A stretch of DNA of 64,000 bases from Dolichospermum sp. OTE_75_concoct_329_sub (GTDB lineage Bacteria; Cyanobacteriota; Cyanobacteriia; Cyanobacteriales; Nostocaceae): assembly GCA_031376645.1 (NCBI GenBank), contig JANMEE010000036.1:8239-72238 (forward strand), given 5' to 3'. Position numbers and translations under genes: made by a program. Numbering within the stretch: position 1 is the first letter of the stretch; each line of letters opens with the position of its first letter. The notes beneath the pieces are model-generated. The model did not search any database, was not told where the DNA came from, and saw nothing but the letters and a program-made list of their open reading frames with translations. Shown one piece after another: positions 42,211 through 49,883 of the stretch.

Positions 42211-43626
42211 TTATGCTAAGTGCATAAAAATTATTTTGAGCAACTCAGCACGAGTAAAAGGTTTAGTTAGATATCCAGAAGCACCGACAAATCTAGCTTT
42301 TACCTTATCTATAATCCCCTTATTGCTAGTTACAAAAATAATGGGAATAGTTTTAAACATGGAATTATTGCGGATAATGCGACATAGTTCATAACCATCA
42401 ATTCCTGCCATATTTAAATCCAGTAAAATCAGATCAGGTTTATGTCTAATAATTGACATTACTGCTTTCACCGGTTCATTAATAGTCACCAAAGTAAAAT
42501 TCTCATCTTCTAAATAACGGCTGATTTCCTTGAGAATTGTGGGACTATCATCTACAGAAATAATTTTGTAAGTCTTTTGTGTGGTTTTTGTATTTACTTT
42601 GACTTTTTGAGAATCGGCATCTATGTTATTATCAACAGCTAAGAGTGAAAAATCCTCTGGAGGTAACTCAGCAATATCTGTTACTAATTGCTGAACTGCT
42701 ACATTATTCTGAGAAACAATTGGAGTTTCTGGAGAAGTATCTTTACTGGGTTCTACATCCGAAACCAATAATTTACCTCTAATTAATTCTGTGCTATCTT
42801 CAGAAAATAGTAATGAACTACCACAGGTTTTTGGCAATTTATCAAATGGAGGATCTGGCTCATGTAATACTATCGAACCCTTAACAATATAGGGGTATAA
42901 ACTTAGTGCTAATTGCAATTCATCCTGATTCATGATAATCGCTAGATGACGCAAGCTAAAACCCTTCATCCAATTGGTGATATTCTCTTTTAGGGGTGGT
43001 AATCTTTTATCCTGAAATTTGCTACTAACTAATAAATAGGGACGCTGATAAGGAGAAGATATATATCTACCAAGATACCGCCAATTTTGTAACTGATTTT
43101 GACATTTTTCCAAAATATCAGTGATATCTAATTTACAAATTATGGGAAAATTTTTCAGTGGTTCTATTAGTTTATAAGTGCCTGTTTTAATGAGGATAAA
43201 TGATTCAATTACCTCTTTAACTAATTCTTGAATAAGTAATGTTGCCTGCTCAGGAAGAAAATGTTGTTCCGTGATCAGCCAATTAATCGCTTCATATTCT
43301 GGAAGTTGGTTTGGTAAAAGATTATTATCTTCAGGCTCAAATACTAAGCGCATTTGTACACGCACTTCATTATCTACGAGAGGAATTTCTTGATGGAGAC
43401 GACGCATCTGTCGTTCTAATCTATCAAAAGGTTCTACTGAATGAGTTGCATAGATAATTTTTCCCTGTTCTATATATATCAACCAACTTACAGAGTTACT
43501 ATATGCTTGTAAACAGGTAGTTTCATAACAATTGCTTAATTGTCTTAATAAACCTTTGGGAGATAATTTGGTAAAAGTGCCAGTATTTTCCATATTTTTA
43601 CAATTTTTTGGCGGATACATCAACAT
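42211..43626 (-). CDS. PatA-family response regulator (PATAN/DUF4388 + linker + receiver)
   Basis: W..YIEQGKIIYATHS; C-terminal SVDDSP, LILLDLNM, IIFVTS, YLTKPF. Confidence 0.88.
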   Translation of the reverse strand: MLMYPPKNCKNMENTGTFTKLSPKGLLRQLSNCYETTCLQAYSNSVSWLIYIEQGKIIYATHSVEPFDRLERQMRRLHQEIPLVDNEVRVQMRLVFEPEDNNLLPNQLPEYEAINWLITEQHFLPEQATLLIQELVKEVIESFILIKTGTYKLIEPLKNFPIICKLDITDILEKCQNQLQNWRYLGRYISSPYQRPYLLVSSKFQDKRLPPLKENITNWMKGFSLRHLAIIMNQDELQLALSLYPYIVKGSIVLHEPDPPFDKLPKTCGSSLLFSEDSTELIRGKLLVSDVEPSKDTSPETPIVSQNNVAVQQLVTDIAELPPEDFSLLAVDNNIDADSQKVKVNTKTTQKTYKIISVDDSPTILKEISRYLEDENFTLVTINEPVKAVMSIIRHKPDLILLDLNMAGIDGYELCRIIRNNSMFKTIPIIFVTSNKGIIDKVKARFVGASGYLTKPFTRAELLKIIFMHLA

Positions 43627-43844
43627 AGTATTGGAAAAGATTAAATATCAGGTGGCAATCTGATATCACCAGGAAATATGGTCATGATTACAAGTTATTA
43701 AATTATGAATATCAATGAAAAACAGCTTCTAAAAATTCTCCAAACTTTGAATGTAACAGTTGTTGTAGTTTTTTATTTTGATTTTTCACCAGTTGTTTAG
43801 ATACAAATCTCTGTTCTGTCATATTTTATAGCTATTTCATCCAA

Positions 43845-44073
43845 GAAGGGAACACCGGAACAGTTTTTACTATTTCCTGTTGCCGAACTGGGGTCTAAAG
43901 CCCCCTTTTACGTTACTCCGGTGTTCCCGGTTCACAGTTTTTACTATTTCCTGTTGCCGAACACTGGAGTAAGAGACTCCGACTTCTATAAGTCGAGTGT
44001 TTCAAGTGGGGTCTAAATCTCCCTTTTATGTTACTCCGGTGTTCCCTGTTTACAGTTCCGGTGTTCTCTCTTC
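43845..44073. repeat. About 74-nt tandem repeat (2+ units) with terminal inverted repeats and a 44-nt insert in unit 2
   Basis: CAGTTTTTACTATTTCCTGTTGCCGAAC at 43861 and 43935; TGGGGTCTAAA...GTTACTCCGGTGTTCCC at 43889 and 44007; GGGAACACCGGAAC and GTTCCGGTGTTC at the ends. Confidence 0.85.
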
Positions 44074-44602
44074 ATCTTGATAAACTATATAGTGATACTA
44101 TTAGGTATACTGAGACTTTTTGGTGATTTAAACGCATCAACTTTTCGACTGATCTTTCTCCTTTTCGTAAATTAAACAATAATGAATTTATTTACCTAAA
44201 GACAGAGGAAATCCCACATAGAATCTTTAAAAATTTATGGAGGTAAATGTATATATTGATTATTACATCAGAAAAGCAACTCAACAGACTGGAGAATCTA
44301 GGTGAAAAACTAGGACTTCGCCCTGTTTGACTCGTTGACTCCTAACTTAGTAACTCCTGCATTATCCCATTTTAACTTTAGTAAAGTTCAATTATGGCAG
44401 ACACTTGACAATAAGTAAGATTAAATATCCTCATAAATCACCAGTGACTAAAGTAGTGATGAAGAGTAGGAAAGACATTTGGTCAATTCACCCCAAATCA
44501 ATATCTTTACTGAAAAACTCAAGTATCTCCCGCAAAATACCATAGTTTTAGTCATACTAACGCCAGAAACTATATACTTTAGAGTAAAAGGAAAATAAAA
44601 CT

Positions 44603-45304
44603 TTGAATTATAACATAACACAAGAAGTTATGATTGATACATTTAATCTTGACGAAGTTGTAGAATTTGCAGAAAATCCCGAACCACGTTGTCCATGCGT
44701 GCTATTGCTGGATACCTCTGGCTCGATGCAAGGGGAACGAATCGAAGCTTTAAATCAAGGTTTGCTGAGTTTAAAGGATGAACTAGTCAAAAATTCCCTA
44801 GCATCCAGAAGGGTAGAGGTGGCAATTATTACATTTGATAGTAATATCAATGTCGTGCAGGACTTTATCACTGCCGATCAATTTAACCCTCCCATTCTCA
44901 CAGCCCAAGGTTTAACAATTATGGGTTCAGCAATTCATAAAGCATTAGATATTGTTCAAGAGCGCAAATCCCAATATCGCACTAATGGGATTGCTTACTA
45001 CCGTCCTTGGGTGTTCATGATTACCGATGGTGAACCCCAAGGTGAAACTGATTCAACATTAGAACAAGCTGCCCAAAGACTGCAAGCAGATGAGTCTAAT
45101 AAGCGGGTGGCTTTCTTTGCAGTGGGTGTGGAAAATGCGAATATGAGCCAATTAAGTCAAATTTCTGTGCGTAGTCCACTGAAATTAAAAGGATTAAACT
45201 TTATTGAGATGTTTGTTTGGCTATCTGCCAGTATGTCAGCCGTATCTCATTCTCAGGTAGATGAACAGGTAGCCCTACCACCAATTGGTTGGGGATCTGT
45301 TTAA
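44603..45304 (+). CDS. vWA-domain protein (TerY/YegL-like)
   Basis: PCVLLLDTSGSM (MIDAS), ITFDS, YRPWVFMITDGEP, MFVWLSASM. Confidence 0.9.
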   Translation: MNYNITQEVMIDTFNLDEVVEFAENPEPRCPCVLLLDTSGSMQGERIEALNQGLLSLKDELVKNSLASRRVEVAIITFDSNINVVQDFITADQFNPPILTAQGLTIMGSAIHKALDIVQERKSQYRTNGIAYYRPWVFMITDGEPQGETDSTLEQAAQRLQADESNKRVAFFAVGVENANMSQLSQISVRSPLKLKGLNFIEMFVWLSASMSAVSHSQVDEQVALPPIGWGSV

Positions 45305-48437: not shown

Positions 48438-48445
48438 TACATTGG

Positions 48446-48931
48446 GGAGTCACCGAAGAAGGAGTCAGGAGTCAGGAGTCAGGAGTCAGGAGTCAGGAGT
48501 CAGGAAGAAGGAAGAAGGAAGAAGGAATTACCTGTCTTTTTTCGGAAATTTTGTACCTCATTTAACCCACATTACACTATAGTAATTTTAATTACAAAAA
48601 CAAATATCTCTGATTTCTTAGTGAAGTCAGGGATATCATTTTAACTATTATTATTTAGGGCCTGCTCAAAGAAAGCAAAAGCGTTGATAGATAAATGTTT
48701 ATAGAGTTTTATCAGCAAAAAAGTGCAAGATTATTGAGCCAAGATTTTAAAAACCCTTGCATTTTCACTCTTCTATAACCGGATAAATTTGAGGACTCAT
48801 TGGTAAACCTCCTTCCTTCTTCTTCCTTCCTTCTTCTTCCTTCCTTCTTCTTCCTTCCTTCTTCTTCCTTCTTCTTCCTTCTTTCTCCTGACTCCTGACT
48901 CCTGACTCCTGACTCCTTCTTCAGTGACTCC
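48446..48931. repeat. Long inverted repeat of two STRR-containing arms (48446-48532 and 48802-48931)
   Basis: GGAGTCAC(C/T)GAAGAAGGAGTC(AGGAGTC)n(GAAG-rich)...TTACC present in opposite orientations. Confidence 0.85.
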
Positions 48932-49109
48932 TGCTAGAAATATTTTACATATAAAATATCTTAGTTTATTTGTTCTTTATCATTTTCTAGAAATTTACAG
49001 TTAAATTATATTTATCTACCTAATAAAGAGAAAGAAAAAATTATTGTGCATTCTCTTCATTTCGATCAATTTAAATTATAACCCACCTGCAAATCTTTGA
49101 GGTAACTAC

Positions 49110-49883
49110 ATGAAAGCAGTGATTCTAGCAGGAGGTCTGGGTACAAGGTTAAGTGAAGAAACCAGTATCAGACCCAAACCAATGGTTGAAGTTGGTGGTA
49201 AGCCAATTCTCTGGCACATCATGAAGACTTATTCTGCTCACGGTATTAATGATTTCATTATCTGTTGCGGTTACAAAGGGTATGTCATTAAAGAATACTT
49301 TGCTAACTATTTTTTACATATGTCAGACGTGACATTTGATATGCGCTTTAATCAAATGAATGTCCATTCTGGATATGCTGAACCTTGGCGCGTCACCTTA
49401 GTAAATACAGGTGATAATACAATGACAGGTGGACGTTTAAAACAAGTTCGTGAACATATTGGCAATGAAACCTTTTGTTTTACTTATGGTGATGGTGTAA
49501 GTAATATTAATATTACAGAATTAATTAAATTCCATCAAGAACAAAAGACATTAGCAACACTTAGCGCGGTACAACCAGCAGGAAGATTTGGGGCAATTTC
49601 TCTAGGACAAGAACAAACTAAAATTACCAGTTTTAAAGAAAAACCCGAAGGTGATGGTGCTTGGATTAATGGCGGCTATTTTGTTCTAGAACCACAAGTA
49701 ATTGATTTTATTGCTGATACCTCAACAGTGTGGGAGAAAGAACCATTAGAAAAGTTAGCTGATTTAGAACAATTATCTGCTTACAAACATGATGGTTTTT
49801 GGCAACCAATGGACACATTAAGAGATAAAAACTATCTAGAGGAGCTATGGAAAAGTGGTCAAGCTCCTTGGCAAGTGTGGTAA
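49110..49883 (+). CDS. rfbF: Glucose-1-phosphate cytidylyltransferase
   Basis: MKAVILAGGLGTRLSEET..RPKPMVE, TMTGGRL, TYGDGV, WINGGYF, FWQPMDTLRDK. Confidence 0.97.
   Translation: MKAVILAGGLGTRLSEETSIRPKPMVEVGGKPILWHIMKTYSAHGINDFIICCGYKGYVIKEYFANYFLHMSDVTFDMRFNQMNVHSGYAEPWRVTLVNTGDNTMTGGRLKQVREHIGNETFCFTYGDGVSNINITELIKFHQEQKTLATLSAVQPAGRFGAISLGQEQTKITSFKEKPEGDGAWINGGYFVLEPQVIDFIADTSTVWEKEPLEKLADLEQLSAYKHDGFWQPMDTLRDKNYLEELWKSGQAPWQVW

Follow-up and report, generated by a model that had tools for sequence, protein, structure and literature searches.

The window analysed here is a 64,000-nucleotide stretch of Dolichospermum sp. OTE_75_concoct_329_sub (contig JANMEE010000036.1, positions 8,239 to 72,238). 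Its positions 42211-48437 encode a PatA-type response regulator on the minus strand, divergent from three co-directional plus-strand genes that specify, in this order, a vWA protein, a PP2C-type phosphatase and an atypical Ser/Thr kinase. The locus is almost certainly the orthologue of all2821 and alr2822-alr2824 of Anabaena PCC 7120: a PatA-type regulator divergent from a YegL/PphC/YegI (TerY-P-type) triad, with the island for the polysaccharide of the heterocyst envelope (HEP island) directly downstream. What might such a triad be doing there? The best explanation overall, to which we give about an even chance of being right, is that it forms a receptor-kinase phospho-switch whose origin lies in a PatA/Che-type signalling cassette and which came to serve the making of the heterocyst envelope. 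What appears to be new is the combination: a TerY-P/YegLKI triad whose kinase ends in a predicted periplasmic receptor tail of TPRs, and which is linked to a PatA-type regulator and, within Nostocales, also to the HEP island.

Orthology is indicated by gene order and sequence identity together. The genes of the window were read from the open reading frame (ORF) listing and from Pfam scans of the encoded proteins. On a PCC 7120-type chromosome the order is hetC, hetP, two small genes, the PatA_N/receiver gene (minus strand), vWA, PP2C, the kinase/TPR gene, and then NTP_transferase, DAO, epimerase, GT2, an unknown gene, rfbC and DRL. The order within that island agrees with the published products of alr2825 to alr2831 (PMC4390870), so that by numbering the regulator becomes all2821 and the triad alr2822-2824. 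Gene for gene and in the same order, the window and PCC 7120-type proteins are 60% identical for the regulator, 84% for the vWA protein, 69% for PP2C, 62% for the kinase (against the 732-aa alr2824 protein) and 90% for the rfbF-type protein (alr2825), followed by 85% and 89%; for the window's orthologues of alr2826-alr2830 the range is 47-89%. The synteny with PCC 7120 all2821/alr2822-2833 that a preliminary description of this DNA had put forward is correct. The window differs from PCC 7120 (where the HEP island extends from alr2825 to alr2841) in what lies upstream: hetC and hetP, neighbours in the PCC 7120-type locus, were not found in it. Calothrix NIES-2100 and Scytonema NUACC21 show the same arrangement as the PCC 7120-type locus, and a scan of Nostocales returned 79 species loci, of which those with enough flanking sequence could be counted: the kinase is preceded by a PatA-like gene, vWA and PP2C in 77 of 77, and rfbF lies downstream in 74 of 76. 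A gene order that recurs in this way is beyond chance. Adjacency of the cassette to HEP genes was found only in Nostocales loci.

The triad also shares its expression with the island, at least in the one organism for which this has been published. In microarrays of PCC 7120 taken 8 h after nitrogen step-down, alr2822, alr2823 and alr2824 are reduced along with alr2825-2841 in mutants of sigC and of sigE (PMC4390870); alr2822-2824 drop in a cse mutant too, and the authors of that study count alr2822-2841 as the island (PMC7065334). The co-regulation with the nitrogen-responsive HEP genes that had been supposed is thus on record, for PCC 7120. The regulator gene, all2821, is not in the SigC-/SigE-dependent set that holds alr2822-2824 and the HEP genes (PMC4390870). 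Both papers refer to the products of alr2822-2824 as hypothetical proteins (PMC4390870, PMC7065334).

To what family do these hypothetical proteins belong? The definition of TerY-P comprises a TerY-like vWA protein with MIDAS, a phosphatase of PP2C type, and a Ser/Thr kinase to which a zinc ribbon is fused (PMC11090510). The window triad matches that definition and accordingly fits TerY-P: it consists of a vWA protein with complete MIDAS, an adjoining PP2C and a YegI-type kinase with its zinc ribbon, in the co-directional order vWA-PP2C-kinase. The same three proteins in the same order are found in E. coli as YegL, PphC and YegI, and comparison with the yegL-pphC-yegI locus of strain K-12, which served as the reference, bears out the claim that these are true homologues: identity is 55% for the vWA protein (E 1e-76), 39% for PP2C (E 3e-46) and 35% for residues 11-331 of the kinase (E 8e-61). 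The TerY-P triad of Anantharaman et al. 2012, to the extent that it is set out in PMC11090510, is likewise vWA, PP2C and kinase-zinc ribbon, and is proposed to be a phosphorylation-dependent switch. Unlike the loci of the TerY-P accounts, that of the window lies outside a ter operon and does not adjoin restriction or CoCoNuT genes. The names given by JGI to the orthologues include "uncharacterized protein YegL" and [quoted passage not shown], the latter being the COG of YegI. A PDB sequence search with the triad proteins brought no useful relatives.

Membership in this family does not carry membership in a defence system with it. The anti-phage TerY-P system of Gao et al. 2020, as relayed in PMC11090510, has a kinase with an OB-fold tail, and the tail of the window kinase is instead a transmembrane (TM) helix followed by TPRs. 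PADLOC gave no match for the vWA protein or PP2C even at E 10, and matched the kinase only to other kinase-containing models, by way of its kinase domain; its TerY model, which misses the window vWA protein, barely detects E. coli YegL (E 0.032). An identification as the anti-phage TerY-P system was accordingly tried and dropped for want of a PADLOC match, and the link to phage defence made in the preliminary description is not supported, as it pertains to a different TerY-P subfamily, that with the OB-fold kinase. Because of these negatives and the OB-fold tail of the defence version, the triad is filed under TerY-P/YegLKI in the broad sense and not as a defence system.

The individual proteins conform to type. 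The regulator (42211-43626, minus strand; 471 aa) joins an N-terminal PATAN/PatA_N domain (PatA_N/DUF4388, E 5e-16) to a C-terminal receiver (Response_reg, E 1.1e-25) in which the acidic pair DD, the phospho-acceptor Asp (LILLD), and the T and K are all present. The YegL/TerY-like vWA protein (44603-45304, plus strand; Pfam VWA, E 3.1e-13) starts at the TTG at 44603 (233 aa) or alternatively at the ATG at 44630 (224 aa); its MIDAS is complete (D-T-S-G-S ... T ... TDG). It is the most conserved of the three triad proteins, 65-72% identical across phyla, with the motifs NPEPRCPC, DxSxS, YYRPW, TDG and WLSxS invariant over that span. The phosphatase (45357-46139, plus strand; 260 aa; PP2C_2, E 2.8e-55) is the PphC/YegK homologue. 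ORFs, Pfam and motifs together confirm the layout originally described (co-directional vWA with intact MIDAS, PP2C, kinase, zinc ribbon, TM segment and TPR array), just as ORFs and Pfam confirm that the triad diverges from the PatA-family regulator and precedes a run of genes from rfbF to a Wzc-like one.

The kinase gene (46242-48437, plus strand; 731 aa) has a kinase-like N-terminal and a TPR C-terminal part. The head, residues 1-312 (46242-47177), is of an atypical Hanks type: canonical HRD and DFG loops are replaced by IGD..N and DTD, and the Pkinase score of 30.7 bits falls just below the cutoff of 31.7. Despite these non-canonical loops the protein keeps the Lys, both the catalytic and the metal-binding Asp, and the Asn, in the motifs GHGGE, VAK, IGDVNESN and DTDSF; GGE, AK, GD..N and DxDSFQ are invariant. 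E. coli YegI shares the GD... and D-x-D-S-F loops, but has Ser in place of the catalytic-loop Asn retained in IGDVNESN. The alignment with YegI extends through a C-x5-H-x8-C-P-W-C motif, a CHCC zinc-ribbon-like element (C313, H319, C328-P-W-C331; with what follows, 47178-47276, assigned by sequence conservation) whose four residues C313, H319, C328 and C331 are invariant in 67 cross-phylum relatives; the CHCC set is also found in YegI, which lacks the conserved GRDPFPS motif that comes next in the window kinase (residues 338-345). Odd loops need not mean an inactive enzyme: YegI, whose catalytic and DSD loops are also odd, is an active kinase that autophosphorylates on Ser, and PphC dephosphorylates it in vitro (bioRxiv 10.1101/819920, 10.1101/303594). 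The family of such kinase heads is large, with 3,926 clusters (50% identity) at E 1e-30 or better and with lengths of 429-1484 aa.

Past the zinc ribbon, the window kinase and YegI part company. YegI has two TM helices, both termini in the cytoplasm, a helix-hairpin-helix (HhH) tail and no extracytoplasmic sensor; the window kinase has one TM helix and predicted periplasmic TPRs. One strongly hydrophobic segment (residues 409-427, KD19 2.26) emerges from a Kyte-Doolittle scan; it lies within a stretch, residues ~406-430 (47457-47531), that is helical in the AlphaFold2 (AF2) model; as a control, the same scan recovers both of the experimentally mapped, adjacent TM helices of YegI. There is exactly one such segment in each of the nine orthologues compared (Nostocales and the sister lineage), with 3-6 Lys/Arg before the TM helix and 0-3 after it. 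The remainder, residues ~460-722 (47619-48407; TPR_11, E 8.8e-38, with TPR_1 and TPR_2), comprises about six TPRs ending in a conserved cysteine pair, C710-X6-C717; AF2 models residues ~460-715 as a 13-helix solenoid, with pLDDT >90 over most of it. The CX6C pair provides the sole cysteines past the TM helix in seven of the nine orthologues; the Gloeocapsa kinase has CX9C and one other (L104) has none. A single TM helix, the charge bias, the cysteine pair, and the need to keep the kinase head in the cytoplasm predict an outward-facing TPR domain closed by a disulfide. Very probably, then, the kinase is a single-pass receptor, in which a TM helix joins the cytoplasmic head and its CHCC zinc ribbon to a TPR solenoid in the periplasm, closed, it would seem, by a disulfide. 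The one TM helix and the following TPR array had been anticipated and are borne out by the hydrophobicity scan, Pfam and AF2; the periplasmic orientation, also anticipated, is supported as a prediction by the charge bias and the conserved cysteines.

That other kinases of the TerY-P type carry other C-terminal domains is equally true: YegI has its two TM helices and HhH tail, and close relatives have mostly WD40. Among the nearest family representatives a single hydrophobic segment follows the zinc ribbon in 95 of 149, WD40 propeller tails occur in 20 of 67 sampled, and a TPR tail like that of the window kinase is present in only 6 of 149. A conserved head, a single TM helix and a variable repeat-domain tail are therefore common in this branch of kinases, with the TPR tail a minority variant. 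As a separate observation, the tails of Nostocales kinases have an extra 34-residue TPR relative to Chroococcidiopsidales-type orthologues (L092, L098, L100, L107).

Where did the cassette come from? The preliminary description expected it to be restricted to heterocyst formers, and this is refuted. A scan with a profile of the kinase head detects it in many cyanobacteria that form no heterocysts, as well as in Armatimonadota, Planctomycetota and Poribacteria, mostly with vWA and PP2C genes upstream and with other tails. Seven loci pair a TPR-type kinase with a divergent PatA-like gene: those of Aliterella atlantica (order Chroococcidiopsidales), Chroococcidiopsis FACHB-1243, a Gloeocapsa metagenome-assembled genome (MAG), Chlorogloea CCALA 695, and three other MAG contigs. 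The window regulator is about 49% identical to the PatA-like regulators of these sister-group loci. Six of the seven have CheY, CheW and/or MCP genes after the regulator and on the regulator's strand, and in three a hybrid CheA gene follows the kinase, so that the general layout is PatA-like, CheY, CheW, MCP on the minus strand and (vWA), PP2C, kinase/TPR, CheA on the plus strand. The Aliterella MCP has dCache, HAMP, GAF and MCPsignal domains. The layout is that of a cyanobacterial taxis operon of Pix/Pil type, with a PatA-type regulator at its head and the triad lodged within. The succession of a PATAN-receiver regulator, CheY, CheW, MCP and hybrid CheA is also that of the Tax1 system (PixG/H/I/J/L) and the Pil/Hmp taxis systems; we know of no taxis system that includes a vWA/PP2C/kinase triad.

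In the window and in all 79 Nostocales loci, unlike in those taxis systems, CheW, MCP and CheA genes are absent; Calothrix and 12 of the 79 keep a CheY gene beside the regulator. Gene content and order suggest that the regulator-triad cassette predates heterocysts and was inherited from a PatA/Che-type signalling cluster. The simplest history would start from an ancestral regulator/Che/triad cassette; in Nostocales the Che genes would then have disappeared, and the HEP island would have been acquired where CheA stands elsewhere. Two further kinds of arrangement were noted. Six of the sister-group loci (L092, L100, L103, L104, L105 and L107; e.g., L092, 1411-12905) have a conserved NACHT gene just beyond the Che-like cluster with its cassette. 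In Microcoleus and Tychonema (L034-L070; e.g., L036, 2999-10118) a variable insert of 3-4 kb, with an RNase III domain protein, Uma2 nucleases and NACHT-like fragments, separates the vWA/PP2C pair from a YegI-type kinase whose tail is a glycine-zipper-rich multi-pass membrane region.

The proposed mechanism is readily stated. The periplasmic TPRs would bind an envelope ligand or partner and thereby set the autophosphorylation of the kinase; PP2C would reset it, as PphC does for YegI in vitro; and the MIDAS-bearing vWA protein would be a phospho-regulated adaptor or substrate. In heterocyst formers, with the HEP island having taken the place that the CheA gene has in sister lineages, nitrogen step-down would switch on the module along with the HEP genes, and the module would tune the deposition of envelope polysaccharide through the PatA-type regulator and/or through HEP export and assembly proteins such as the Wzc-like protein. 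That the triad has a developmental role in the heterocyst envelope, its mechanism being of some such kind, we consider plausible at somewhat less than even odds. A bolder version is speculative and rather unlikely: that the HEP programme was grafted onto an older cassette of PatA regulator and TerY-P-type switch which originally worked with a chemotaxis-like system; that the TPRs read nascent polysaccharide or its export machinery; and that the kinase phosphorylates the PatA-type regulator, the vWA protein or the Wzc-like protein, thus setting the place and time of Hep layer deposition. If true, it would make a developmental checkpoint of a "conflict-type" triad, and would tie the Hep layer evolutionarily to secretion under taxis-type control.

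Regulation of the heterocyst polysaccharide layer was described as poorly understood in 2026 (PMC13555669). Directly upstream of the HEP island, the locus has three signalling genes that are uncharacterised, yet co-regulated and conserved universally, and E. coli YegI and PphC allow their biochemistry to be predicted. The widespread YegLKI/TerY-P family, whose function is obscure, gains in turn a setting in which a phenotype is easy to score (Alcian blue staining, aerobic N2 fixation), and the Che-like link in the sister lineages points to a testable path along which a programme for a developmental envelope came to be wired to an older signalling cassette. Control of heterocyst polysaccharide by Ser/Thr phosphorylation has precedents in the HepS kinase and in the HenR phosphatase, the Alr3423 kinase and the STAS glycosyltransferase All4160 (PMC13555669). 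These belong to protein families unrelated to the triad and are encoded elsewhere; unlike the triad, they are backed by genetics.

A number of observations weigh against recruitment of the triad to envelope formation. None of the seven sister-group loci has HEP genes downstream. Four of them (L092, L103, L105, L107) wholly lack the vWA gene, with no remnant, while PP2C and the kinase/TPR gene stay; the vWA protein consequently cannot be the sole target, and the triad is not obligatory in the clade. Raphidiopsis brookii D9, which we take to make no heterocysts, retains the triad, and it retains HEP genes also. The AF2 model of the kinase head, made for the full kinase from a shallow alignment of 25 close orthologues, is poor (pLDDT <50), so that the head is assigned by sequence homology. 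The kinase and rfbF are separated by 672 bp in the window and by 294-1507 bp in every relative examined, and a terminator-like hairpin (48604-48636) stands in the gap. Gap, hairpin and the inverted repeat arrays found there (described below) indicate that triad and island are probably separate transcription units under common control. Mutant or biochemical data for the triad genes of any cyanobacterium were not found in the literature searched, and the 2026 paper that names HepK, HepN, HepS and HenR as known Hep regulators does not mention alr2822-2824 (PMC13555669).

The principal rival explanation, which we regard as unlikely but worth serious attention, is that the triad serves the PatA-type regulator only, as a Che-like relic concerned with polarity, type IV pili or secretion, its adjacency to the HEP genes being a historical accident preserved by shared nitrogen-responsive transcription. 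The pairing of regulator and triad is, indeed, older and wider than the pairing with HEP genes, as the Chroococcidiopsidales-type CheY/CheW/MCP/CheA clusters attest, and the CheY gene of some Nostocales is just such a relic; in Synechocystis, regulators with a PATAN domain are reported to act on the motor of type IV pili; and the long gap before rfbF and the missing entry for alr2822-2824 in published lists of Hep regulators (PMC13555669) also speak for it. Against it stands the adjacency of triad and HEP genes in 74 of 76 Nostocales loci, across deep divergence, and the fact that this adjacency persists in Cylindrospermopsis and Raphidiopsis, in which the PatA-like gene has been lost from the site. 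It is, moreover, alr2822-2824 and not all2821 that share the SigC-/SigE-dependent set with the HEP genes.

Appreciably less probable is a general envelope-stress sensor, operating in all cell types, that reports damage to the periplasm or outer membrane and is induced in differentiation only secondarily. A receptor-kinase architecture with a predicted periplasmic protein-interaction domain would suit this role, the module is present in relatives that do not differentiate, and in Chroococcidiopsis and Gloeocapsa the cassette adjoins a TolC-like OEP gene; the invariable linkage to the HEP island within Nostocales and the co-regulation with heterocyst-specific genes 8 h after nitrogen step-down (PMC4390870) speak the other way. 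Finally, a stand-alone conflict or anti-phage TerY-P system that adjoins a polysaccharide island by chance is very improbable, for although TerY-P as a family has ties to restriction and processing systems and its OB-fold variant defends against phage (PMC11090510), and although NACHT genes near the sister-group cassettes, the Microcoleus-type inserts (RNase III, Uma2, NACHT-like) and the methylase, PIN and XisI genes 3-8 kb upstream in the window lend it some colour, the fixed position and graded sequence divergence over 79 Nostocales species are unlike those of a mobile defence island, a predicted periplasmic TPR tail stands where nucleic-acid-binding tails (OB fold, HhH) would be expected, PADLOC matched nothing but the kinase domain, and expression in PCC 7120 is developmentally regulated (PMC4390870).

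The DNA between the transcription units deserves a word. The divergent region between regulator and vWA genes (43627-44602, about 1 kb; 175-943 bp in relatives) presumably holds the promoters of both. Comparison with relatives detected no conserved NtcA, DIF or other motif in it, and the DIF motif TCCGGA is absent from the intergenic regions of the window. It contains two copies of a MITE-like element (43860-44057), with direct repeats at 43886-43939/44004-44057 (54 nt, 89%) and at 43860-43888/43934-43962 (a 29-mer, 100%). The region between triad and HEP island (48438-49109) has, besides the hairpin, heptamer arrays resembling STRR (short tandemly repeated repetitive) sequences in inverted orientation (48446-48931): AGGAGTC repeated 6.6 times at 48460-48505, AGGAAGA repeated 3.7 times, and their reverse complements. 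The inverted arms, 48446-48499 and 48878-48931, are 54 nt long, 93% complementary and 378 nt apart, and a spurious 63-aa ORF (48391-48582) reads through the arrays. A perfect match to the NtcA site GTA-N8-TAC in the same gap (GTAATTTTAATTAC, 48582) is not conserved in relatives and is for that reason treated as due to chance. A promoter scan returned fewer sigma-70-like sites than in shuffled sequence, and an Rfam scan of 40.8-50 kb produced only a sub-threshold match to a plant miRNA, likewise put down to chance.

The island itself begins with the glucose-1-phosphate cytidylyltransferase-like gene of rfbF type (49110-49883, plus strand; NTP_transferase, E 1.6e-24), the alr2825 orthologue and first HEP gene. 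It continues on the same strand, by Pfam, from 49935 to 63476 with a DAO oxidoreductase, a GT8, an epimerase, two GT2, two alr2829-like proteins, rfbC, a DRL oxidoreductase, a GT1 and a Wzz/P-loop (Wzc-like) protein. The segment 51247-57416 has, compared with the PCC 7120-type island, an extra GT8, two GT2 paralogues (both alr2828-like), and two alr2829-like paralogues, with 71% and 57% identity to the one gene of PCC 7120; which glycosyltransferases the island contains varies between Nostocales loci. Individual loci also depart from the common plan. In Raphidiopsis brookii D9 and Cylindrospermopsis-type contigs (L022, L115, L116) there is no PatA-like gene at the site, its place being taken by a MalK-like ABC ATPase with hetP and a GH116 gene just upstream, and the triad and HEP genes are kept. 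One contig of a Nostocaceae MAG (L018) has the kinase/TPR gene and HEP genes with no match to vWA, PP2C or PatA-like genes in the 10 kb upstream, perhaps owing to rearrangement or misassembly.

Upstream of the regulator, the window has a patch of mobile or defence-like flavour at 34095-39501: a DNA methylase, a 364-aa ORF of unknown kind, a protein with an IrrE/M78 peptidase domain, XisI, and a PIN-domain protein whose gene overlaps a 125-aa ORF, possibly as a toxin-antitoxin pair. It is followed by a gene for S-adenosylhomocysteine hydrolase at 39536-40810.

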